Shown here: in pieces, positions 4,081-63,914 of the stretch
Layout: each line of letters opens with the position of its first letter
How positions within the stretch are numbered: position 1 is the first letter of the stretch
Source of the DNA: a virus
Lineage: Duplodnaviria > Heunggongvirae > Uroviricota > Caudoviricetes
Length of the DNA stretch: 64,000 bases
Direction: 5' to 3' (one strand)
Virus record (IMG/VR): IMGVR_UViG_3300029914_000004
Notes under the pieces: generated by a model
Seen by the model: only the letters and a program-made list of their open reading frames with translations
Database searches by the model: none
What the model was told of the DNA's origin: nothing
Position numbers and translations under genes: made by a program

Positions 4081-4551
4081 ATGCCTCAAAATAATAAAAA
4101 AATTGATCCAATTTTGAAAAATACTTTAATTTCAGTTCTTGCTTTTTTAAAACACAAAGCAGAGGATAAAGGATTATCTCCAGTTATTAGTGTAACCAAA
4201 CTAGTTGATTTGCTTAAATCTTCTGGAATGACAATTACTTATCAACAATTATTGGATATGACTCATGATCAATCTATTTCTAAATCTATTAAATCCATCA
4301 ATAAAAATCAAGTAACAATTTCTTTGGGAGGAGAGGAAAATGAGGAGCAACCATTGCAAGATTTTGGTGGAGAGCCAGAAAGCAGCGAAGATGAATTTAA
4401 TCCAGATGATTTTCAAGCTCCTGAAGAAGATGAAGAGGGAGAAAATCCAGAAGCTGCTCCTGTTGAAAATGAAGCTGAACCGAATCAATATGGAAGACAA
4501 AAGAGCATAGTTGGCTCAATGGCTCATAGAGCTATGTCTCGACCAGATTAA
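4081..4551 (+). CDS. hypothetical protein with acidic C-terminal tail
   Basis: ORF; start moved to ATG 4081 after GGAG. Confidence 0.6.
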   Translation: MPQNNKKIDPILKNTLISVLAFLKHKAEDKGLSPVISVTKLVDLLKSSGMTITYQQLLDMTHDQSISKSIKSINKNQVTISLGGEENEEQPLQDFGGEPESSEDEFNPDDFQAPEEDEEGENPEAAPVENEAEPNQYGRQKSIVGSMAHRAMSRPD

Positions 4552-18475: not shown

Positions 18476-21400
18476 TTGAACGATTTTTTAGTTAACCCAC
18501 ACCCATCCCAAGTTACAGTATTTGAAGACAGCTTTTCTGAAGAAGTATGGTCAAATACATATAAAAATTATAAAGACAAAGATATTAATGATACTTTTAA
18601 TCGTGTTGCACAAGCAATTGCAAGCGTAGAAAAAACAGAAGATTTAAGAAAAGAATGGGCAGAAAAATTTTATGATATGATGTGTAATTTTTCTGTCGTT
18701 CCTGGTGGAAGAATTTTAGCAAATGCAGGTACAGAATTTCGTGGAACAAGTTTAATTAATTGTTTTGTTGGTCCAACTCCAAAATATGATTGCGATAGTT
18801 TATCTGGAATTTTAGAAGTTTTAAGAAGCCAATCAATTACTTTAAAGAGCGAAGGTGGGTGGGGAAAGAATTTTTCTTTTATCCGACCAAGAGGAACTTT
18901 TATTAAAGGAATTGGTGTTGAAACTCCTGGAGCAGTAAAGTTTATGGAACTATTTGACAAGAGTTCTGAAATTATTACAGCAGGTTCTGGAAAGAAAGCT
19001 TCAAATAAAAAAGCAAAAGGAAAAATAAGAAAAGGGGCGATGATGGGAATTTTGGATATTTCCCATCCTGACATTATTGAATTTATTACTATAAAGCAAA
19101 CTTCCAATAGATTATCTAAATTTAATCTTAGTATAAACTGCTCTGATAAATTTATGGATAAAGTATTGTTAGTTAGTAAATTAAAAAAAGAAAGTGGTAG
19201 CCAGGAACAAATCGATGAAATAACATGGGATCTAATTTTTCCAGATACAACTTATGAAAAATATAAAGAAGAATGGTGCGGCGATATTCAAGATTGGCAA
19301 GAAAAAAATTATCCAGTAATTGTTTATCAAACAGTAAAAGTAGATTGGTTATGGAACCTTATTACTCAATCAACTTATTCAAGAAATGAACCTGGAATTT
19401 TATTTTTAGATCGTGCAAATAAATTTAATGAATTAAATTATGCTGAAAAAATATTTGCAAGTAACCCATGTGTTACTTTGGATTCATGGGTAACAACAAG
19501 TCGCGGAGCAAAACAAGTTAAAGAATTATTGGGAATTCCATTTACTGCTATTGTTGATGGTATTTGTTGGAATAGTTCTGAAAAGGGATTTTTTGTATCA
19601 GGAAATAAGCCTATTTTAAAAATAAGTACAATAAATGGCTATACCTTAAAAGTTACAGAAAATCATAAAATAAAAATTTTAAGAAATAATAAAATTGATT
19701 GGATTGCTGCTGGAAAATTATCTATTGGTGATCAAATTTTTATTAATAATCATTCGTCAGTAGATGTTAAAATATCTGAAAAAAATGATGCTATTGGATA
19801 TGCGTTAGGATTGCTGGTTGGGGACGGAAATATTAGTGGAAAAAATGCTCATTTATGTTCTTGGGGAAATACAGAAGGAGTTAAAAATGTTCGTAATAAA
19901 GTTATGCAAGAATTGCTTCAATATGCTTCTCCAGCAAAAACTTTTAAAGGATGGCATGAAGTAAAAGGAAGAAATGAATATCGAATTCAATTTAAGGATT
20001 TGCATTCTTATGCAATATCATATGGACTTACTTCATCAAATAAACATGTAAATAAAACAATTGAAGAAGATATTTATATCAGCAAAGGATTTATTCGTGG
20101 GATGTTTGATGCTTATGGGTCTGTTCAAGGAAATAGAGATACAGGTTTGAGTATTCGTCTAAGTCAAAGCAATTTAGAAGATTTGCAAGCAATTCAACGA
20201 ATGTTAGTTAGATGGGGAATTGTTTCTACCATATATGAAAACAAGAGAGATGAATGTTTGAAGGATATGCCTGATGGAAAAGGTGGAAAAAAAGAATATC
20301 TATGTAAAGCAAATCATGAATTGGTATTATCTAAAAGTAATATAGAAAAATATTTAAATATTATTGGATTTTATGATTCAGATAAAAAAGAAAAATGTGA
20401 AAGACTTTTAACTGAATATGTTTATGGATTACATAAAGAAACATATTTAGCAGAAATATCCTCAATTGAAAATTTTCCAAATGAAATTGTAGCGGATTGC
20501 GAAATCCCTGGAATTAATGCATTTGATTGTAATGGATTGGTAATTTCAAATTGCGGAGAGCAATTACTTTCAAATGAAAATATTTGTTGTTTGGGATCTT
20601 TAAATCTAACTCAATTTATTAATAAAAATAGAACTGGATTTGATTTACATAAATTAGCGAAATATACAAAATATTTAATAAGATTTTTGGATAATGTAAA
20701 TGATTATTCAGATGCTCCTCTTCCAGAATACATTAATTCAATGAGAAATAAACGAAGAATTGGCGCAGGATTAATGGGATGGGGAAGCGCATTATTTATT
20801 CTCAAAGTCAAATATGGTTCCAAAGAATCAACAAAGCTAAGAACTGAAATTTTAAAAACTTATACATTGGCTGGTGTTGAAGCGTCATTGGATTTAGCTG
20901 ATGAAAAAGGAATGTTTAATTTATGTGAGCCAGAAAAACATGCCTTTAGTCCATATTGGGATAATATTGATTTGCCAGAAAATCTTCGTAAAAGAATTCT
21001 CAAGAATGGTATTAGAAATTCTTCACTATTTAGTTGCCAACCAACAGGAAATGCTGGTGTAACAGCTCAGATTGTATCGGGTGGAATTGAGCCCGTATTT
21101 ATGTCTGAATATATTAGAACAGTTATCGTATCTTCAACGCCGGATCATATTAAAGATGTAACTCCAAATTGGAATCAAGGAGAATGGGCTGAGACTAATA
21201 TGTTTAAATTCTCCCAAGAAGGAGATGAGCAAATTTTACGCGGTGTGGATAGTAATGGAGTTGTATATAAAATCGATAAAAATAGAGGATTAACAAAAGA
21301 AGTTCTATGTCAGGATTATGGAGTTAGATATTTAACTAAATTTGGAGAGTGGAATCCTTCTGCTGATTGGGCAGCAACAACTACTTCTTTATCAGTCAAA

Positions 21401-22147
21401 GATCATTTGGTTGAATTAGAGGGATTTGCAAAATATTTAGATAGCAGTGTATCAAAAACGATTAATATTCCCAATGATTATCTATTTGAAGATTTTCAAA
21501 ATATATATTTAGATGCATACAATACTGGGTATATCAAAGGATGTACCACATATCGTTCTGGATCAATGACTTCTGTTCTTTCAGCAGTTGATCAAAAAAA
21601 TGATGATATAGATGAAGAAGTTATTTTAGAAGATGTAAAATTGCCTGATAATATGTCTGCTGAAATGAAAGTTCTGCATGATCATGAAGGTGATAGTAGT
21701 CGTAAATGGTATGTAACGATTAGTTTGAATGAAAATAAAGCACCAGTGGCAATATTTGTTCAAACCAATGCAATGGAAAAATCAGTAACAACGAATGATG
21801 CTATTGAAAAATTATTTGCGTTGGCTAAAGTAAAAGGTATTCCAGAACAATATATAGAATCAACATTTAAAAAATGCAATAATGATTCTAATAGTGTTAA
21901 AATTGCTAGAGCAATCGGATTATTATTACGTCATGGAGTAAGAATCAAATATATTGTTGCTGAAATAGATAAAGTTGATGGCGTTACTTTTTCAAGTTTT
22001 CTATTTCATATTAAAAAGATGCTGGGAAGTTTTGTGAAAGATGGCGAAAAAATTGATGGGGCCAAATGCACAGAATGTAATGGTCAACTTGTTTATGAAT
22101 CAGGGTGCCAGAAATGCCTGCAATGTGGAAATTCAAAATGCGGATGA
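18476..22147 (+). CDS. nrdJ: class II (B12-dependent) ribonucleotide reductase with intein
   Basis: PGGRILANAG, NP|C-G-E split by intein, QPTGN, VSKTIN, GCTTYR; C-terminal TSCPD-like and CxxC..CxxC Zn ribbon; no nrdB-like gene in the window. Confidence 0.85.
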   Translation: MNDFLVNPHPSQVTVFEDSFSEEVWSNTYKNYKDKDINDTFNRVAQAIASVEKTEDLRKEWAEKFYDMMCNFSVVPGGRILANAGTEFRGTSLINCFVGPTPKYDCDSLSGILEVLRSQSITLKSEGGWGKNFSFIRPRGTFIKGIGVETPGAVKFMELFDKSSEIITAGSGKKASNKKAKGKIRKGAMMGILDISHPDIIEFITIKQTSNRLSKFNLSINCSDKFMDKVLLVSKLKKESGSQEQIDEITWDLIFPDTTYEKYKEEWCGDIQDWQEKNYPVIVYQTVKVDWLWNLITQSTYSRNEPGILFLDRANKFNELNYAEKIFASNPCVTLDSWVTTSRGAKQVKELLGIPFTAIVDGICWNSSEKGFFVSGNKPILKISTINGYTLKVTENHKIKILRNNKIDWIAAGKLSIGDQIFINNHSSVDVKISEKNDAIGYALGLLVGDGNISGKNAHLCSWGNTEGVKNVRNKVMQELLQYASPAKTFKGWHEVKGRNEYRIQFKDLHSYAISYGLTSSNKHVNKTIEEDIYISKGFIRGMFDAYGSVQGNRDTGLSIRLSQSNLEDLQAIQRMLVRWGIVSTIYENKRDECLKDMPDGKGGKKEYLCKANHELVLSKSNIEKYLNIIGFYDSDKKEKCERLLTEYVYGLHKETYLAEISSIENFPNEIVADCEIPGINAFDCNGLVISNCGEQLLSNENICCLGSLNLTQFINKNRTGFDLHKLAKYTKYLIRFLDNVNDYSDAPLPEYINSMRNKRRIGAGLMGWGSALFILKVKYGSKESTKLRTEILKTYTLAGVEASLDLADEKGMFNLCEPEKHAFSPYWDNIDLPENLRKRILKNGIRNSSLFSCQPTGNAGVTAQIVSGGIEPVFMSEYIRTVIVSSTPDHIKDVTPNWNQGEWAETNMFKFSQEGDEQILRGVDSNGVVYKIDKNRGLTKEVLCQDYGVRYLTKFGEWNPSADWAATTTSLSVKDHLVELEGFAKYLDSSVSKTINIPNDYLFEDFQNIYLDAYNTGYIKGCTTYRSGSMTSVLSAVDQKNDDIDEEVILEDVKLPDNMSAEMKVLHDHEGDSSRKWYVTISLNENKAPVAIFVQTNAMEKSVTTNDAIEKLFALAKVKGIPEQYIESTFKKCNNDSNSVKIARAIGLLLRHGVRIKYIVAEIDKVDGVTFSSFLFHIKKMLGSFVKDGEKIDGAKCTECNGQLVYESGCQKCLQCGNSKCG
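19469..20551 (+). mobile_element. 361-aa intein with LAGLIDADG endonuclease domain
   Basis: starts CVTLDSWV, ends GLVISN followed by Cys+1; blocks LGLLVGDG and RGMFDAYG. Confidence 0.9.
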
Positions 22148-40971: not shown

Positions 40972-41064
40972 GGGCTATGGGGCTGCTAGGGTGGCCACTG
41001 GTTTTGCACTCCAGAATCATCGAGAAATCGATACAGCGGGATTCAAATTCCCGATAGTCCACCA
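40972..41064 (+). tRNA. tRNA-Ala(TGC) with long variable arm
   Basis: GGGCTAT/ATAGTCC with G3:U70, ACCA; loop TT-TGC-AC; 22-nt variable arm. Confidence 0.8.
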
Positions 41065-41638: not shown

Positions 41639-41756
41639 AGATCAATAGCTCAATTGGTTAGAGCAACGAGATTAACAGATCAAGTCGTAAAGCCACAAGC
41701 CTAAGATACTTGAAGTCACTCGTCGGTTGAAGGTTCGAGTCCTTCTTGATTTACTA
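41639..41756 (+). tRNA. tRNA, probably Leu(TAA), with 41-nt anticodon-loop insert
   Basis: intact D and T arms, stem ACGAG/CTCGT, 48-nt loop 41671-41718. Confidence 0.65.
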
Positions 41757-42078: not shown

Positions 42079-42198
42079 GAGATTGTAGCTCAATTGGTAG
42101 AGCAACGCCCTTTTTTCGGGATGCTTCTTTGAGAGAGCATTCGATGGATGCTTTCAAAAAGGCGCAGGTTGTGGGTTCGATTCCCACCAGTCTCACAA
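42079..42198 (+). tRNA. tRNA-Lys(TTT) with 44-nt anticodon-loop insert
   Basis: GAGATTG/CAGTCTC; CT-TTT[insert about 42115-42158]AA. Confidence 0.7.
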
Positions 42199-42250: not shown

Positions 42251-42865
42251 ATGCCATTAGTAAATTGTCCAAAATGTAATACTGAATTTGAGAATAAAGG
42301 AAAATGGGGAACCAAAAAATTTTGTAGTAGAAAATGTGCCAATTCAAAAGATCGGCCACAAGAGTTAAGAGATAGAGTTTCTAAAAAATTAAAAGGAAGA
42401 ATTGGAAAAAGTATTTTTCTTTCTCCAGAGAAACTCATAAGTCGTAATCTTAAACTTAGAAAAACTTGGGATTTAAAATATGAGAATATTCCATTTGAAG
42501 AACTTTCTTGGGATTTACAAAGATTGCGAGTAATAAAAGAACAAAATAATTCTTGCGGAAAATGTGAAATTACTGAATGGTTTGAAAATCCAATAACTTT
42601 AGAAGTTGATCATATAGATGGAAACCGAAAGAATAATTGTAGAGAAAATTTAATTGCTATTTGTCCAAATTGTCATAGTATTACTACAACATGGCGCGGA
42701 AGAAATAGAAAAACTGTGGATTATAAAACTGATGAAGAAATTTTAAATGTTATTTTACAAACTGAAAATATTCATCAAGCATTAAAATTTCTAAATATGG
42801 CATGTCGAGGAGCCAATTATAAAAGATTACAACAGTTAATGGAAAAAAATAATATCTCTTACTAA
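42251..42865 (+). CDS. HNH homing endonuclease with N-terminal FCS..C Zn finger
   Basis: CPKC, FCSRKCAN, CGKC, LEVDHIDGN..NN.RENL..ICPNCHS; TAAATA upstream. Confidence 0.9.
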   Translation: MPLVNCPKCNTEFENKGKWGTKKFCSRKCANSKDRPQELRDRVSKKLKGRIGKSIFLSPEKLISRNLKLRKTWDLKYENIPFEELSWDLQRLRVIKEQNNSCGKCEITEWFENPITLEVDHIDGNRKNNCRENLIAICPNCHSITTTWRGRNRKTVDYKTDEEILNVILQTENIHQALKFLNMACRGANYKRLQQLMEKNNISY

Positions 42866-42871
42866 ATTTAT

Positions 42872-42976
42872 AGCCGTATAGCTCAATTGGTTCAGAGCAT
42901 TCCCCTTATTTAGGGCCTGTGCATCAGACCTTAAATAAGGGAAAGGTTGATGGTTCGATCCCATCTACGGCTACCA
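42872..42976 (+). tRNA. tRNA-Ile(TAT) with 27-nt anticodon-loop insert
   Basis: AGCCGTA/TACGGCT-ACCA; stem TTCCC/GGGAA; 34-nt loop 42905-42938. Confidence 0.75.
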
Positions 42977-42990
42977 CAAAGTTTAAATGT

Positions 42991-43051
42991 TGGCTTGTAG
43001 CATAATTGGCAATGTGTGACCCTGTTAAGGTCAAAGATGATGGTCCAGCCA
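42991..43051 (+). pseudogene. T-arm-deleted duplicate of tRNA-Asn(GTT)
   Basis: identical to 47275-47351 except GTTCGAGTCCCTCTGAG is replaced by T. Confidence 0.85.
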
Positions 43052-43062
43052 AAATTTAAAGT

Positions 43063-43480: not shown

Positions 43481-43565
43481 GCGGGAGAAGCCTACTTGGT
43501 ATGGCACTGGTCTTCCAAACCAGAGATGAAAATCGCTGCGAGTTCAAATCTCGTCTCCCGCTCCA
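43481..43565 (+). tRNA. tRNA-Gly(TCC) with long variable arm
   Basis: GCGGGAG/CTCCCGC-TCCA; CT-TCC-AA; 14-nt variable arm. Confidence 0.9.
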
Positions 43566-47274: not shown

Positions 47275-47351
47275 TGGCTTGTAGCATAATTGGCAATGTG
47301 TGACCCTGTTAAGGTCAAAGATGATGGGTTCGAGTCCCTCTGAGCCAGCCA
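47275..47351 (+). tRNA. tRNA-Asn(GTT)
   Basis: TGACC-CTGTTAA-GGTCA; G73, CCA. Confidence 0.85.
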
Positions 47352-47379
47352 AAAATTTAGTTGTTGAAGGGTGTGCCGA

Positions 47380-47769
47380 ATGGCAAGTATGACAAAAGAT
47401 CAAATTAGATATAATGATCCTACAACTGGAAGAAAAAAATATCTTATTAAAAAGGTAACAGATCGCAGAATTACAATTCGCAAAAAAGTAGTAGAAATTT
47501 TGGGAGGAAAGTGTTTGCTATGCGGTTATGATAAGTGTGGAAATGCATTATGCGCACATCATCTTGATCCAAAAGAAAAAGAGTTTGGTTTAAGTTATAA
47601 AGGTTTGTGTAGGAGTTGGATTAAAGTTCTTTCTGAATTAAAGAAATGCGTTTTGCTTTGCGCTAATTGTCATGCAGAAGTGCATGATGGATTGATTATT
47701 CCTAATGAATTAATAATACAAACTAGAAAACGTGTAGAGTGTGAAGAAAGTTTAGTTGTTCCTTCGTAG
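47380..47769 (+). CDS. HNH endonuclease
   Basis: GGKCLLCGY.KC..AL..HHLDP..K.F...ELKKCVLLCANCHAEVH; stop overlaps the next tRNA; flanked by TTTAGTTGTT direct repeats (47356, 47751). Confidence 0.9.
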   Translation: MASMTKDQIRYNDPTTGRKKYLIKKVTDRRITIRKKVVEILGGKCLLCGYDKCGNALCAHHLDPKEKEFGLSYKGLCRSWIKVLSELKKCVLLCANCHAEVHDGLIIPNELIIQTRKRVECEESLVVPS

Positions 47770-47885
47770 CTCAATTGGTAGAGCGGGCGGCTGTGCGAGA
47801 TAGATAATGGAATTTAACCAGTTCAAATCTGGAATCTCGAAAAGTAACCGTCAGGTTGGGGGATCGTGGCCCTCCGAAGGAGCCA
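47760..47885 (+). tRNA. tRNA-Asn(GTT) with 50-nt insert inside the anticodon
   Basis: TCCTTCG/CGAAGGA-GCCA; GGCGG/CCGTC; CTGT[47795-47844]TAA. Confidence 0.75.
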
Positions 47886-47890
47886 AAAAT

Positions 47891-48028
47891 TATAGTGGTG
47901 TGTTTTGAACGGATAACAAGTCAGACTCTATGTGTATACAACGGTGATATGACACTGATTGGGATGGCCGACTGTTGCGAACGGGAATATGACCGTGAAG
48001 TGCCCCAAAGTCTGTGTCTGCCACTATA
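47891..48028 (+). ncRNA. 138-nt structured RNA candidate
   Basis: TATAGTGG/CCACTATA closing stem; CAGAC/GTCTG pairing; GC-richer than flanks. Confidence 0.45.
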
Positions 48029-48381
48029 AATAATTTTATACAATTGTCAGTCAATGATTAGGAAAATATTTCAACAAGGAGAAAATATGGTATATATAAA
48101 TAATAACGGAGTTGTTTTAACAGGAACGGATGCGTGGCCTGTGAATCCATACAAGTCCGAGTCTACAACAAAAATTTTTGAAAATAATGGAGTATCAGAT
48201 TTTACGACGGTACATTTTATAGCAGATGATCCTGGTATTCCGAGAAAATCAGCACGATATAATAATAAACAGAAATTAATTTCAATTTGTGAAAATAATA
48301 ACATATTATATGAAGTCGTTCCTGACGAGTAAAATTATATTTTCTGAAGTTAACATACTATAATTAATCATAAATAATAGT

Positions 48382-48612
48382 ATGAATTATAGTAAACTAT
48401 ATAAAAATATCATTAATAATGCGAAGAATAGAAACAATAATTTATGTTATATTGAATCTCATCATATAATTCCGCGATCTTTGGGTGGAGAGAATGGCAG
48501 TAATAATTTAATAAATCTTACTGCGATAGAACATTTTATATGTCATTTCTTATTGACAAAAATGTATAAAATAATACCGAATTGGTCTAATGGCAATGAC
48601 GCTTCGCTTTGA
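48382..48612 (+). pseudogene. truncated HNH endonuclease running into tRNA-Gln
   Basis: Y.E.HHIIPRSLGG.N...NL..LTA.EHFICH.LL.K, then tRNA sequence. Confidence 0.75.
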
Positions 48613-48650
48613 ACGAAGAAGCACAGATTCGATTTCTGTATTCGGTGCCA
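48576..48650 (+). tRNA. tRNA-Gln(TTG)
   Basis: CTTCG-CTTTGAA-CGAAG; ACCGAAT/ATTCGGT-GCCA. Confidence 0.85.
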
Positions 48651-48895
48651 AAATATTATGAAAAATAAACCAAAAGTTGGACAAAAAATTAGATTAAATA
48701 AATTTGGAGTTAGGCAAATTTATAATAGTTCTATAGCTCCGTCTGGTTTACTGAGGCAAGTGTTTACAATTACTGAAGTAGACGAAGAATCAATGACAGA
48801 GCCAGAAAAACTTGGATGATTGAAGTTGATGATCCAGAGTTAAATCAATTTATGCTTGACAACTGGTGTTTTGATTTAGTGTCATAAATATTAGT

Positions 48896-50038: not shown

Positions 50039-50126
50039 CGGAATGGCGGCAGGCCTGGTTTGCCTCCACGTTTGGGGCGTGGCGTTCGTAAGAACATCGT
50101 AGGTTCAAATCCTATCATTCCGACCA
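50039..50126 (+). tRNA. tRNA-Pro(TGG) with long variable arm
   Basis: CGGAATG/CATTCCG-ACCA; TT-TGG-GG; 16-nt variable arm. Confidence 0.85.
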
Positions 50127-50574: not shown

Positions 50575-50943
50575 ATGAAACTTTGGTTAGATGATATTCG
50601 TGATCCAAAGAGATATGGTTATCATGATATGTATTGGGCTAAAAATTATAATGAAGCGATTGCTGCTTTGAAACTTGGTAAAGTAACATTTGCTTCATTA
50701 GATCATGATATTGGTGCTTGTGAAGATTGTGTAAAATCGTTGTCACACATTGGAGACATGCGCTCGCCTGAGACAACATTTTTTAATCATTGCTCACATG
50801 AAAAATCTGGTTACGATGTAATTTGTTTTATGGAAGATAATGATATATGGCCAACAGACGGTGTAAAAGTTCATAGTATGAATCCAGTTGGCAAAGAAAG
50901 AATGAATCAAGTGATTAGAAAGCAGTATGGAAGAACTTGGTAG
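50575..50943 (+). CDS. cyclic-phosphate-processing receiver-domain (cREC-like) protein
   Basis: MKLWLDDIR, W.KNY.EAI, SLDHD.G, GYD, VHS.NPVG. Confidence 0.75.
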   Translation: MKLWLDDIRDPKRYGYHDMYWAKNYNEAIAALKLGKVTFASLDHDIGACEDCVKSLSHIGDMRSPETTFFNHCSHEKSGYDVICFMEDNDIWPTDGVKVHSMNPVGKERMNQVIRKQYGRTW

Positions 50944-51441: not shown

Positions 51442-52070
51442 ATGAATTGTACTTTATGTAATAAAGAAACAAAAATCCAAAATTTTGTTCGCAATCTTGC
51501 TCAGCAAAATTTTCAAATAAAAATAGAGAACGATCTTTTGATTCACGAGTAAAAATAAGTTCGTCTTTAAGAAATTGTAAATCTCTTTCAACAAGTATTG
51601 AATGTTCAATTTGTGCTAGGAAATTTTATAAATTTGAGTCTAAAGGTAGAAAATATTGTAGTCTTAAATGTTGTGGAATTGCAAAGAAAAATAAATTCAC
51701 TGCTGATTTTTCTCTGAATGGAAAGGGAAATCATAAAAGAGTGTTAATACATGAGCGTGGTTATAAATGCGAACGATGTAAAAATAGTGAATGGATGGGA
51801 ATAGAAATTAATTTGCAATTAGAACATAAGGATGGAAATCATTTTAATAATGAAAAAACAAATTTAGAGCTTTTATGCCTCAATTGCCATAGTCAAACAT
51901 TAACATTTAATCGTAAGAAAACAGCAAAACTTATTTCTGACGATGAATTTTTAAAAGTATTAAATTCATCTAAAAATATTCGTCAATGTTTATTAAAATT
52001 AGGTTTGCAGCAAGGTAGCACAAATTATGATAGAGCCAAAAGATTATTAAGAAGAAATATGCAGCCGTAG
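51442..52070 (+). CDS. HNH endonuclease with Zn fingers, frameshifted at an A5 run
   Basis: MNCTLC; one extra A at 51471-51475 gives NPKFCSQSC ... LEHKDGNHFNN..NLELLCLNCHS. Confidence 0.75.
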
Positions 52071-52147
52071 CCTAGTGGATTCAGGCACCAGTCTACGAAA
52101 CTGGAGAGGAAACTCTAACGCAAGTTCGAATCTTGTCGGCTGCACCA
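52061..52147 (+). tRNA. tRNA-Arg(ACG) with long variable arm
   Basis: CCAGT-CTACGAA-ACTGG; AGAG-GAAA-CTCT arm; overlaps the HNH stop. Confidence 0.9.
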
Positions 52148-52401: not shown

Positions 52402-52466
52402 ATAACTTGTAGCATTATTCTATATTGTGCTATAATAAAGAAGTAAATCAAAGGAGAAATATATTC

Positions 52467-53441
52467 GTGAGTACTTTAAGTACTAAATATTTACCACTCC
52501 CATCAAAAGTTAATCCGGATAAATTAGAAACTCTTTTAAAGAAGCAAGGAAACAAAAATAATATTATTCAAGATGTATATTCTGAGGTTATAGATTTCAT
52601 CACTCAAAATAATCTCATATCAAATGAATTATTAATACCAGAAAAACCTCCAATCCGCATGTTAGAAATAGGCAAAGTTCTATTGTGTGTCATTGAAGAT
52701 TATTCCAAATTTAATACTGAAATGCTCCCCAAAAAATATGTGGAGAATTTTCATTTTTCTTGGGTTAAAAAAGGGTATCGAGTAATTTGGATTAAAAGAT
52801 TTGAGTGGGAAGATTTGAGAAAGCGTAATGTATTACAATCTTTAATTCTTCATGCTTGCGGTAAAACAAAAAATAGATTTTTCGCAAGGAAAACATACGC
52901 TGAAATTATTCCTAGTAAAGATTTAAGAGAATTTTTTAACAATTCTTCTTTTTATGGTTATCGCAATGCTTCGTTTGCTGTTTGTTTAAAAGATAAAAAG
53001 ACTAATGAAATTTTAATGGCTATGAATTTTGGACACCCATATTATGGAAAAAACAAGTATGGAGAAGGCGCTGTAGAATGTATCAGAGCAGCTTCTAAAC
53101 CTCACACAGTTATTGTTGGCGGAATGTCAAAATTAATGAAATTTATGATTGAGCAGTTCGGAAATACTTTTAAATCTTGCGTGTATTATATTGACAGTTC
53201 CCATTATGGGAGTGGATCGATGGGGGCGGCTGGATTTACTTATTCTCATTTTGCTGGAGGAGCGTCACATAATGTTTGGAAAAAAACAGGAAGTATGTTT
53301 ATGAGAACACCAGCATTACATCAGGAAATAATGTTTATGATTAAACAAAACGAAATAGTTGCAGTTCCAGATGTGGGAAATGAAACTTTTATATTTAATA
53401 CCAGCAACGAAATTGGTAATGCAAGTTCAACAGATACATAA
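52467..53441 (+). CDS. Hef-like putative homing endonuclease
   Basis: GYRVIWI..FEW, R.FARK, GGMSKL.KF, YID motifs; free-standing inside the tRNA array. Confidence 0.55.
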   Translation: MSTLSTKYLPLPSKVNPDKLETLLKKQGNKNNIIQDVYSEVIDFITQNNLISNELLIPEKPPIRMLEIGKVLLCVIEDYSKFNTEMLPKKYVENFHFSWVKKGYRVIWIKRFEWEDLRKRNVLQSLILHACGKTKNRFFARKTYAEIIPSKDLREFFNNSSFYGYRNASFAVCLKDKKTNEILMAMNFGHPYYGKNKYGEGAVECIRAASKPHTVIVGGMSKLMKFMIEQFGNTFKSCVYYIDSSHYGSGSMGAAGFTYSHFAGGASHNVWKKTGSMFMRTPALHQEIMFMIKQNEIVAVPDVGNETFIFNTSNEIGNASSTDT

Positions 53442-57190: not shown

Positions 57191-57790
57191 ATGGAACAAT
57201 ATCCGACAATACTTGGTAGTTCAAAAGCGCCATTAGGAAAGCCGTGTATTGCTTTCTACAAATATGATGGCAGCAATTTACGTTGGGAATGGAACCCAAA
57301 GAAAGGTTGGCATAAATTTGGGACTCGTCACCAATTATTTGACTCTTCTAACCCATTGTTTGGCCAAGCAATTCCAATCTTTTTAAACACGATGGGAGAT
57401 GAAATAGTTGAACGAGTAAAGAAGATCAATAAGAAAATACATAGAATCACTGCGTTCACAGAATTTTTTGGACCATCCAGTTTTGCTGGAAAGCATGAAA
57501 TTGACGAGCTGAAAGAATTGAGATTGTTTGATGTTTATTTGTTTCATCAGGGAATGATGCTGCCAAAAGAATTCGTTAAAACTTTTGGAGATTTGCCTTA
57601 TACAGCACAAATTGTTTATCAAGGAAATTTAAATAAACAATTTATTGATGATGTTCGTACTGGAAAATATCCTGTGATTGAAGGAGTTGTAGCAAAAGGA
57701 AATGATTTTAGTGTAAAAATTAAAACAAATTCATATTTTCAAAAACTAAATGAAGTGTATGGAACTGCATATCGTCAGTATTGGGAATAA
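57191..57790 (+). CDS. compact ATP-dependent RNA-ligase-like nucleotidyltransferase
   Basis: motif I KYDGSN, FTEFFG, LFD, EGVV, VKIK. Confidence 0.7.
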   Translation: MEQYPTILGSSKAPLGKPCIAFYKYDGSNLRWEWNPKKGWHKFGTRHQLFDSSNPLFGQAIPIFLNTMGDEIVERVKKINKKIHRITAFTEFFGPSSFAGKHEIDELKELRLFDVYLFHQGMMLPKEFVKTFGDLPYTAQIVYQGNLNKQFIDDVRTGKYPVIEGVVAKGNDFSVKIKTNSYFQKLNEVYGTAYRQYWE

Positions 57791-62049: not shown

Positions 62050-62709
62050 ATGAATAATATTCAGCAAACTCGATATAAATACCCAAGAACTTTCCATTTC
62101 CCAGAAAGCCCTGGTGCCATGAATGACGATAGGATTCTTGATCCAATAGAGTCTTATGCAAAATGGGATCATGAAGTCGTGATTACTGAAAAGAGAGATG
62201 GCGAAAATTTTTCAGGATATAATGACGGCTAGCATGTGAGAAGTTTGGACTATGAAGCGCATCCAAGCAGAAATCGAATCGCTGCACTTCACGCTCGTTT
62301 CTCTTATCTTATTCCTGATGGTTGGAGAATTTGCGCAGAAAATCTTACAGTGAAACACAGCATCAAGTATAAAGATTTGCAAGAAATTTGTGAAGTATTT
62401 GGAATTTGGAATGGAGAAACTTGTTTAAGTTGGGACGATACTGTGATATTTTCTGCATTATTGGAATTACCAACAGTTCCTATTTTATGGAGAGGAATTT
62501 GGAATCCTGAATATTCTAGCGTGTTTGTAGATCAAATTTCAAGAATGATAAATCCAGAAACTCAAGAAGGATTTGTTGTTCGCCCAACAGCATCATTTCA
62601 AATGAAAGATTTTAATCATTTGGTTGGAAAATGGGTTAGAAAAGGTCACGTTACTTCTGGAGAACATTGGATGCGTTCTCAAATTGAATATAATGAAATC
62701 AGTGGTTGA
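62050..62709 (+). pseudogene. Rnl2-type RNA ligase interrupted by an in-frame TAG (62230-62232)
   Basis: KYPRT.H.P.SPG...DD, TEKRDGEN, *HVRSLD..HPSR, ENL..KHSI, EGFVVR, KWVR..HV; both parts in the same frame. Confidence 0.8.
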
Positions 62710-63820: not shown

Positions 63821-63914
63821 ATGAGTGAAGGGCAATCCGGTTTGGCTCAGCAGTCTCCAAAACTGCCGTCTCTGAGAAGAGCAAATGTAGGTTCAAATCC
63901 TACCACTCATGCCA
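63821..63914 (+). tRNA. tRNA-Trp(CCA) with long variable arm
   Basis: GCAGT-CTCCAAA-ACTGC; 20-nt variable region; GCCA. Confidence 0.85.

Follow-up and report, generated by a model that had tools for sequence, protein, structure and literature searches.

The stretch of DNA analysed here (the window, 64,000 nucleotides) belongs to a 127-kb IMG/VR virus record, IMGVR_UViG_3300029914_000004 (G000 below), which is assigned to the Caudoviricetes, is ~49% complete, and has a GC content of 33%. On its plus strand, at 47760-47885, lies a tRNA-Asn(GTT) gene with an encoded CCA, recognized by ARAGORN when introns are allowed and interrupted by a 50-nucleotide (nt) insert at 47795-47844. The insert follows nt 35 of the tRNA and therefore sits between anticodon nucleotides 35 and 36. 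We argue here that it belongs to a conserved family of phage RNA elements shaped like a miniature tRNA (‘mini-tRNA’) and that it is probably an intron whose removal requires proteins. The gene has three parts:

47760..47794, plus strand: exon 1, comprising the acceptor 5' strand, the D arm, the anticodon stem 5' strand, and loop nucleotides 32-35 (C U G U)
47795..47844, plus strand: the mini-tRNA-shaped insert (putative intron), 50 nt, with same-site homologues in contigs L004 and L076 and in ~28 IMG/VR contigs; 70.2 bits with the covariance model R1 (below)
47845..47885, plus strand: exon 2, comprising loop nucleotides 36-38 (U A A), the anticodon stem 3' strand, the variable loop, the T arm, the acceptor 3' strand, G73, and CCA

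Removal of the 50 nt leaves a cloverleaf with GUU in a 7-nt loop, a perfect 7-base-pair (bp) acceptor stem (TCCTTCG/CGAAGGA), U1-A72, and G73. The intronless tRNA-Asn of another large phage contig (L003, 8042-8115) equals nt 8-48 of this spliced form letter for letter, and exon 1 matches it exactly over nt 8-35. Because this intronless homologue is identical and only a break at 35/36 restores CTGTTAA, the junctions are fixed at 47794|47795 and 47844|47845; moving them by one nt yields the anticodon GGT or GTG. The gene is easily overlooked: it is called neither by ARAGORN in default mode nor by Rfam at the gathering threshold, and with the insert left in, RF00005 returns a sub-threshold, 14-bit partial match whose T arm is taken from the insert’s hairpin. 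In DNA contigs from four peat runs, one contig (X3) covers 47298-48753 without a difference, and one X10 contig joins 47794 to 47845 with a shorter side of just 28 letters. We rejected the latter as a spliced or intron-free form of this phage, as the match is short and most likely represents another phage’s intronless tRNA-Asn.

The insert itself can be divided into five segments:

47795..47801, plus strand: 5' strand of the closing stem P1, with G1 (facing A47840, non-Watson-Crick) followed by CGAGAT
47802..47816, plus strand: linker with a weak small hairpin, P2, in constrained folds; it holds a TGG reminiscent of a D loop
47817..47833, plus strand: T-arm-like hairpin P3, with A.A plus a CCAG/CTGG stem and a 7-nt loop, TTCAAAT, at 47822-47828
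47834..47840, plus strand: 3' strand of P1, ATCTCG plus A47840 opposite G1; it abuts the P3 3' strand, giving 7+5 stacked positions
47841..47844, plus strand: single-stranded 3' tail AAAG, 4 nt, in the place of a discriminator plus CCA

As modelled, the insert takes the form of one half of a tRNA, the acceptor/T-arm domain together with discriminator and CCA, since the 7+5 stack, the 7-nt T loop, and the 4-nt 3' overhang equal the dimensions of that domain; its first and last nucleotides fall where the tRNA 5' end and position 76 would lie. The 7+5 geometry is common to L004, L076, L108, L088, and the cultured phage phiM12. The window loop TTCAAAT, closed by G47821-C47829, conforms to the T-loop motif, and the loops of most variants match U-(U/G)-N-R-A, with those of L154 and L178 beginning with G. 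The linker between P1 and P3 measures 12-19 nt across variants and is mostly a small hairpin, often with a D-loop-reminiscent GGT; this hairpin appears in the constrained folds of most variants, in a region that is unalignable and lies outside covariation scoring. The last 5 nt are unpaired in the minimum-energy folds of most variants. The lineages L078, L178, and L113 have ACCA or GCCA as the 4-nt overhang, with an ordinary G-C pair at position 1; in the window, G1 is flush with the stem, the overhang is AAAG, and excision at these ends gives the loop CTGTTAA. An initial annotation, made from the window’s letters alone, had proposed an Asn-like body (U1-A72, G73), a 35/36 junction, and an insert that folds as CGAGAT/ATCTCG around a T-arm-like CCAG-TTCAAAT-CTGG. 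All three hold: the first by the ARAGORN Asn(gtt) call and the identity to the L003 tRNA, the second by that homologue and the anticodons of shifted junctions, and the third by the presence of both helices, which covary across homologues.

The host tRNA has a peculiarity of its own in the T loop (47863-47869), which reads ATCGTGG, with A54 and U58 replacing T54 and A58. Loops of this type (ATCGTGC, ATCGTTA) recur in the intron-bearing tRNA-Asn of two further lineages, L049 and L113, so the swap is probably a functional variant rather than decay. We also considered that the T loop of the insert substitutes for a defective host T loop, and discarded the idea on finding canonical T loops in the host tRNAs of L076, L079, and L088.

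Homologues were sought by pattern scans of IMG/VR and metagenome contigs anchored solely on the Asn exons. About 28 IMG/VR contigs, representing eight sequence variants, carry inserts at tRNA-Asn 35/36, and metagenome contigs add more; those in tRNA-Asn measure 46-52 nt, and the family extends up to 60 nt. In the close relative L004 (NadV 85% identical), a 50-nt insert occupies the same tRNA-Asn site, with CGAGAT/ATCTCG changed to GGTCT/AGACC and CCAG/CTGG to CTGG/CCAG, the pairing being kept. We aligned 14 variants with MAFFT, anchored on the exon letters and with no structure fitted (alignment A3), and then scored them against one structure: 81% of cells are paired, and in 10 of the 12 pairs both partners have changed. 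The score for covariation, 0.738, compares with 0.185 +/- 0.032 in shuffles (0/500 reach it), and falls to 0.20 or less once the 3' partners are slid by 1-3 columns. In P1, pairs 9-14/49-54 of the alignment covary, five of them changed on both sides, and in P3 changes on both sides affect 5/5 pairs. Pair 8/55, the first closing-stem position, is non-standard, mostly G.A, in 13/14 sequences, while the loop-closing pair 36/44 is G-C in 13/14; conservation of nucleotides among variants is confined to the T-loop motif and the G.A pair. Judged by these compensatory changes, the insert is a conserved structured RNA and not a random disruption.

The covariance model built from this alignment, R1, finds a single full copy in the window, and all of its partial matches, each confined to the hairpin segment, fall on genuine T arms in the window’s ordinary tRNAs. 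Because the hairpin segment finds true T arms and the tails of L078, L178, and L113 are NCCA, the T-arm likeness is more than an impression. R1 also detects a member absent from its seed alignment, with 46.7 bits, in phiM12 (KF381361.1, 94960-95081; L318, 1495-1616); the cultured Sinorhizobium phages phiM12, phiM7, and phiM19 share an identical 46-nt insert at 35/36 of tRNA-Asn, and the Ochrobactrum phage ORM_20 has an intronless allele. In GenBank, the gene of the three Sinorhizobium phages is labelled a 77-nt pseudo ‘tRNA-OTHER’ or ‘tRNA-Thr’, an annotation error caused by the intron. An exact search of IMG/VR for the insert hairpin plus the closing-stem 3' strand returned nothing, nor did a search for relatives with the open reading frame (ORF) 52425-53441.

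The same exon pattern, applied to one genome per prokaryote species, gave at least 65 inserts at the 35/36 site. Among the matches listed, the recurrent recognizable cellular inserts are archaeal (Nitrososphaera, Nitrosocosmicus, Aenigmatarchaeota, Methanosarcinales, and others), most of the remainder, which come in many cases from bacterial genomes, are not called as tRNAs by ARAGORN and resemble chance hits to the pattern, and none of the archaeal introns reaches 9/12 on a mini-tRNA measure (at most 8/12), on which family members score 8-12 and nearly all at least 9. Within this sample and the matches listed, the mini-tRNA family appears to be restricted to viruses. Archaeal tRNA-Asn introns at 35/36, found in Woesearchaeota too, are 40-60 nt long and fall into a few conserved sequence types, and ARAGORN fails on many of them (L200-L310, e.g., L223, L233, L254, L272). 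Two groups of inserts that we had considered as further phage classes, ‘AG’...CAG/CCG/CGG and ‘TATCC...GGTAAG’, proved to be archaeal introns.

That archaeal tRNA-Asn introns occupy exactly 35/36 raises the question of whether the phage insert, too, is of the archaeal bulge-helix-bulge type and is cut out by an EndA-like endonuclease. This is barely credible: many archaeal 35/36 introns pair their 3' end (CAGCCG) with the exon (CGGCTG) and, among the matches listed, none has mini-tRNA geometry, while the window folds contain no 3-4-3 motif and place 5 nt opposite 8 nt between the anticodon stem and P1. Moreover, PF01974 was not found in the ~49% complete 127-kb record, and the carriers are bacteriophages, for instance of Sinorhizobium. 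A small self-splicing or self-cleaving ribozyme is also very improbable. A three-helix junction of ~50 nt is within the size range of hammerhead and pistol ribozymes, but no Rfam ribozyme or intron family matches even at E 10, no conserved core is present, the reaction calls for two precise cuts plus a ligation, and a group I core would not fit into an element of this size. Group I introns proper were rejected, as they usually reach at least 200 nt, and neither a P3-P9 core nor an Rfam match at E up to 10 was found in these 50 nt. The initial annotation had judged the insert too short for a group I intron and not a clean bulge-helix-bulge, and we concur on both counts. Excision by RNase III was rejected as well: a 2-nt 3' stagger would suit the hairpin of the 27-nt insert in another tRNA gene of the window (at 42872, below), whereas the Asn intron has a 4-nt overhang and a 5-by-8 junction.

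How the ends of these elements are defined is best seen in L113 (192 kb), which carries four NCCA-ended mini-tRNA introns within one tRNA array:

Leu(TAA): junction 34/35
Thr(TGT): junction 34/35; 129 nt, D-arm-like segment present
Ile(TAT): junction 36/37
Asn(GTT): junction 35/36

If each intron is taken to begin at the first nucleotide of the stem and to end with the A of CCA, its excision gives all four tRNAs a canonical 7-nt loop in which U33 and A37 are present, and the nucleotide at -1 is U in 4/4, which has a chance of ~4% by count of possible loop positions. Bacterial RNase P favours U at -1. The intron ends thus located would be set by the intron and not by the position in the host tRNA. 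The four-intron contig also encodes a CTA-anticodon (amber suppressor) tRNA at 4353-4427, and because of this tRNA the L113 phage probably reads TAG as a sense codon.

The interrupted tRNAs themselves look well kept. In more than 12 lineages with an interrupted tRNA-Asn, acceptor stems are wholly different yet still pair, U1-A72 and G73 persist, and the gene often encodes CCA. L004 has no tRNA-Asn other than the intron copy in 10 kb of tRNA array, and in L113, 4/10 array tRNAs are interrupted and the locus has no intronless duplicates. Because the host tRNAs stay intact, and in L004 and L113 do so without duplicates, we take these observations to argue, short of proof, that the exons are in use and the insert is removed.

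As the host tRNAs are intact, the insert is conserved with tRNA-like ends, and the carriers encode Rnl1-type ligases, protein-dependent splicing, as first inferred in the initial annotation, appears to be the best reading of the sequences. In its specific form, which we favour tentatively and regard as possible rather than probable, 47795-47844 would be an ORF-less intron of the phage-specific mini-tRNA family, excised by an RNase P-type cut and a second cut and followed by Rnl1 sealing. Host RNase P would cut 5' of intron G1, recognizing the 12-position stacked helix with its T loop, with U35 as the nucleotide at -1. An acceptor/T-arm minihelix is the minimal RNase P substrate. A second endonuclease would cut after the 4-nt 3' overhang, the tRNA body would hold the halves together with 3'-OH and 5'-phosphate ends, and the phage T4 Rnl1-type ligase would seal them, restoring the loop CUGUUAA. 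The window insert shows the RNase P substrate features of a 7+5 stack, a T loop, and U at -1, but its G1 faces A and its tail is AAAG, not CCA.

The gene content of the carriers bears on this scheme. The 127-kb record encodes two PF09414 ligases and one T4 Rnl1-type ligase (PF09511), with an AAA_33 kinase beside two RNA ligases at 103.6-107.9 kb; the Rnl1-type ligase lies at ~107.3-107.9 kb, and that of phiM12 is the ORF at 135.1-135.7 kb. Rnl1 (PF09511) is present in 5/5 informative carriers (G000, G001, and the complete genomes G002, phiM12, and G017) and in 3/8 complete genomes where R1 found nothing. RtcB occurs in 0/4 carrier genomes searched, and RtcB, EndA (PF01974), and RNase Z-like domains were absent from the ~49% complete 127-kb record. 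The initial annotation had named two ligases, at 57191 and 62050; the latter (62050-62709) is an RNA ligase (PF09414), while ORF 57191 has just a weak PHROG RNA-ligase match (E 7e-7). The 62050-62709 frame contains a single in-frame TAG at 62230-62232, and no CTA-anticodon tRNA was found in the 127-kb record; the gene could be a pseudogene or contain a readthrough site or a local recoding. General TAG recoding is not supported by a crude test: ORFs gain less length when TAG is no longer counted as a stop than when TGA or TAA is.

Several points weigh against the RNase P-ligase scheme. Given the AAAG tail in place of CCA and the G.A mismatch at the top pair, the fidelity of RNase P on the window insert is uncertain. 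The 3' cut is the weak point of the mechanism: RNase Z normally cuts after the discriminator, and we know of no bacterial nuclease that cuts 3 nt past it regardless of sequence. The inserts of L166 and L102 do not fit the 4-nt overhang rule. The Rnl1 association has a Fisher p of ~0.04, uncorrected, calculated by hand, and drawn from small, related samples, and Rnl1, kinase, and cREC together make up a general RNA-repair kit of large phages that would be equally suited to a cyclic-phosphate pathway. Finally, an intronless tRNA-Asn(GTT) lies 400 nt upstream (47275..47351, plus strand; ARAGORN, and Rfam with 48.2 bits), so that the intron copy need not decode, and the exons could also owe their healthy look to renewal by recurrent homing into intact tRNA genes.

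The main rival draws on the same gene content, which supports it equally well. Here, a dedicated putative phage or host endonuclease would cut both junctions, leaving a 2',3'-cyclic phosphate and a 5'-OH, a kinase and a cyclic-phosphate enzyme would heal these ends, and Rnl1 would seal them, in a splicing use of T4-style heal-and-seal repair, with the mini-tRNA serving as the enzyme’s handle. A cREC_REC ORF (PF20274, E 3e-21) lies at 50575-50943, in the middle of the tRNA array, and the AAA_33 kinase adjoins the ligases; Iyer et al. (PMC7824862), in a survey of jumbo phages that treats ligases and cREC as repair enzymes only, linked cREC to RNA ligases and cyclic ends. The precision of the 3' junction would be easier to understand with one enzyme acting at both sites than with RNase P and a second nuclease, and, as read from the sequence, the tail can partly pair with loop nt 32-35, in which case U36-A37-A38 would form a 3-nt bulge. 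Yet this pairing is weak and is absent in the NCCA subfamily; there is no bulge-helix-bulge; neither an EndA-like domain (PF01974) nor another candidate nuclease was found in the 127-kb fragment; and the NCCA ends and the U at -1 are left unexplained. We regard this pathway as somewhat unlikely.

The second serious rival is that the gene is not spliced to a working tRNA at all, and it is bound up with an adjacent gene:

47371..47769, plus strand: HNH homing-endonuclease ORF (PHROG HNH families, E 9e-21), its stop codon falling within nt 1-10 of the tRNA

Homologues of this HNH gene abut intron-bearing tRNA-Asn in at least four other lineages (L049, L088/L062, L123/L056/L072, and L063/L067), phiM12 has an HNH gene beside its intron-bearing copy, and the order intronless Asn, HNH, intron Asn is seen again in L123 and L056. 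HNH genes of the same family also adjoin ordinary tRNAs. The association with introns (10/64 vs 34/582 tRNAs) is confounded by redundancy and counts only as a recurring layout. The adjacency suggests mobility at the DNA level, in which the ORF-less intron would travel with the free-standing HNH endonuclease, probably interrupting its target site, in the style of collaborative homing.

On that footing, the insert could be selfish, or could confer immunity by disrupting the HNH target, and would be tolerated beside an intact tRNA-Asn, its RNA perhaps releasing the mini-tRNA or acting as a decoy or masked tRNA. The intronless Asn next door and the recurrence of the layout in two lineages speak for this, as do the label of pseudo tRNA given to the phiM12 copy in GenBank, the debris in the array (a truncated Asn copy at 42991-43052), and the possibility that repeated homing keeps the exons healthy-looking. 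Against it stand L004 and L113, where interrupted genes have no intronless partner in the array or locus, the identity elements and compensatory stems retained in more than 12 lineages, and the fact that, at three loop positions, excision at the mini-tRNA ends recovers a loop of exactly 7 nt, something of no use to a purely selfish insert. On balance, we consider this explanation unlikely. The truncated copy itself is a 62-nt tRNA-like remnant directly after the tRNA at 42872; its first 53 nt (to GATGG) equal those of tRNA-Asn 47275-47351, and a 17-nt deletion has removed what would follow of the T arm, which points to duplication and recombination within the array.

Combining splicing with mobility leads to a broader proposal, which we consider doubtful as a whole: a third kind of tRNA splicing, in which mini-tRNA introns would be excised by RNase P and a tRNA 3'-end nuclease and the halves rejoined by T4-type RNA ligase 1, with the intron doubling as the immunity half of a homing-endonuclease cassette directed against rival tRNA genes.

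The surroundings are those of a large phage whose DNA is present in many peat metagenome runs and which encodes NAD salvage genes, an NAD-dependent DNA ligase, and an intein-bearing ribonucleotide reductase. The intein, with a LAGLIDADG endonuclease domain, lies in the large subunit (18476-22147) and is another mobile element. The tRNA array begins at 40.6 kb, continues until the window ends, and comprises at least 28 genes, all on the plus strand. Three further genes bear inserts in the anticodon loop, at 41639-41754 (41 nt), 42079-42196 (44 nt), and 42872-42976 (27 nt); they are real tRNA genes, scoring 52-58 bits in Rfam when the model skips the insert. The initial annotation had spoken of four such genes: the count is correct, but the other three inserts differ in structural type, and none fits the mini-tRNA rule. 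The insert at 42872 lengthens the anticodon stem with a nearly perfect 14-bp hairpin (an arm of ~20 bp), and an HNH ORF (42251-42865) ends 7 nt before this tRNA; the gene at 42079 is Lys-like, with a 3' exon 88% identical to the intronless tRNA-Lys(TTT) of L004. Elsewhere in the array, tRNA-Ala(TGC) at 40972-41064, Gly(TCC) at 43481-43565, Pro(TGG) at 50039-50126, Arg(ACG) at 52061-52147, and Trp(CCA) at 63821-63914 are 85-94 nt long, the variable region being enlarged by an additional hairpin or a lengthy stretch. Ordinarily, the Ala, Gly, Pro, Arg, and Trp isoacceptors belong to class I and have a short variable loop.

The prevailing view is that the introns of bacterial-type tRNA genes are all self-splicing group I elements and that the splicing of tRNA by proteins is a trait of archaea and eukaryotes. 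Widespread virus-only introns outside the known ribozyme mechanisms, in intact tRNAs, would imply an undescribed splicing route in infected bacteria. If so, the phage Rnl1 would gain a physiological substrate and a programmed role in splicing besides damage repair. Annotations would be corrected, too, as such genes are now missed or labelled pseudo, tRNA-OTHER, or tRNA-Thr, and the S. meliloti phages phiM12, phiM7, and phiM19, which carry a family member, offer a laboratory system for the question.

Among known systems, group I introns, such as those of cyanobacterial tRNA-Leu(UAA) and Azoarcus tRNA-Ile, likewise interrupt the anticodon loop of bacterial-type tRNAs, are often linked to homing endonucleases, and have plus and minus alleles; they differ in being at least ~200 nt long and in self-splicing by a catalytic P1-P9 core, whereas the phage element has 50 nt and no core. 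The bulge-helix-bulge introns of archaea and eukaryotes (EndA/Sen; RtcB or Trl1) are similarly short, and some occupy non-canonical sites, including 35/36 of archaeal tRNA-Asn. In the phages, however, there is no 3-4-3 motif, no EndA in the 127-kb record, and no RtcB in the carriers searched, and the mini-tRNA intron has a tRNA-like fold of its own that is not built by pairing with the exons.

Processing signals of tRNA shape are familiar from mitochondrial tRNA punctuation, the MALAT1 mascRNA, and the spacer tRNAs of rRNA operons, where embedded tRNA-shaped elements are cut by RNase P and RNase Z/E. The mini-tRNA intron would resemble them as an embedded element whose ends are the cleavage sites, but the flanks there stay unjoined, whereas here they are tRNA halves that need ligation. 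For the ligation, the nearest parallel is phage T4, in which Pnkp and Rnl1 repair the anticodon loop after PrrC cleavage; Rnl1-type sealing of an anticodon-loop break would be common to both, although the T4 case is a damage response and not programmed splicing. As for mobility, collaborative homing between an ORF-less intron and a free-standing endonuclease was reportedly described by Bonocora and Shub in 2009. A free-standing endonuclease beside an ORF-less intron is shared with the present locus; in that case, the intron is a self-splicing group I intron in a protein gene.

The closest likeness is to the ‘enigmatic’ tRNA introns of Lak megaphages (Devoto et al. 2019, Nat Microbiol, PMC6784885), a precedent that the initial annotation had named and that the paper bears out. 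In the literature searched, we found no later paper that defines the mini-tRNA intron family or proposes a mechanism for it. Like the present element, the Lak introns are short, conserved anticodon-loop inserts in phage tRNAs that are not group I and that have alleles with and without the intron, a likeness by description and not by sequence alignment. The Lak account (PMC6784885) comes without a structural family, covariation, an end rule, or a link to HNH genes or Rnl1. Its phages also differ from the present 33% GC peat phage, which is related to them through an endonuclease fragment only, and the mini-tRNA family, unlike that account, reaches cultured Sinorhizobium phages. A mini-tRNA intron spliced by proteins would nonetheless explain the Lak introns as well.

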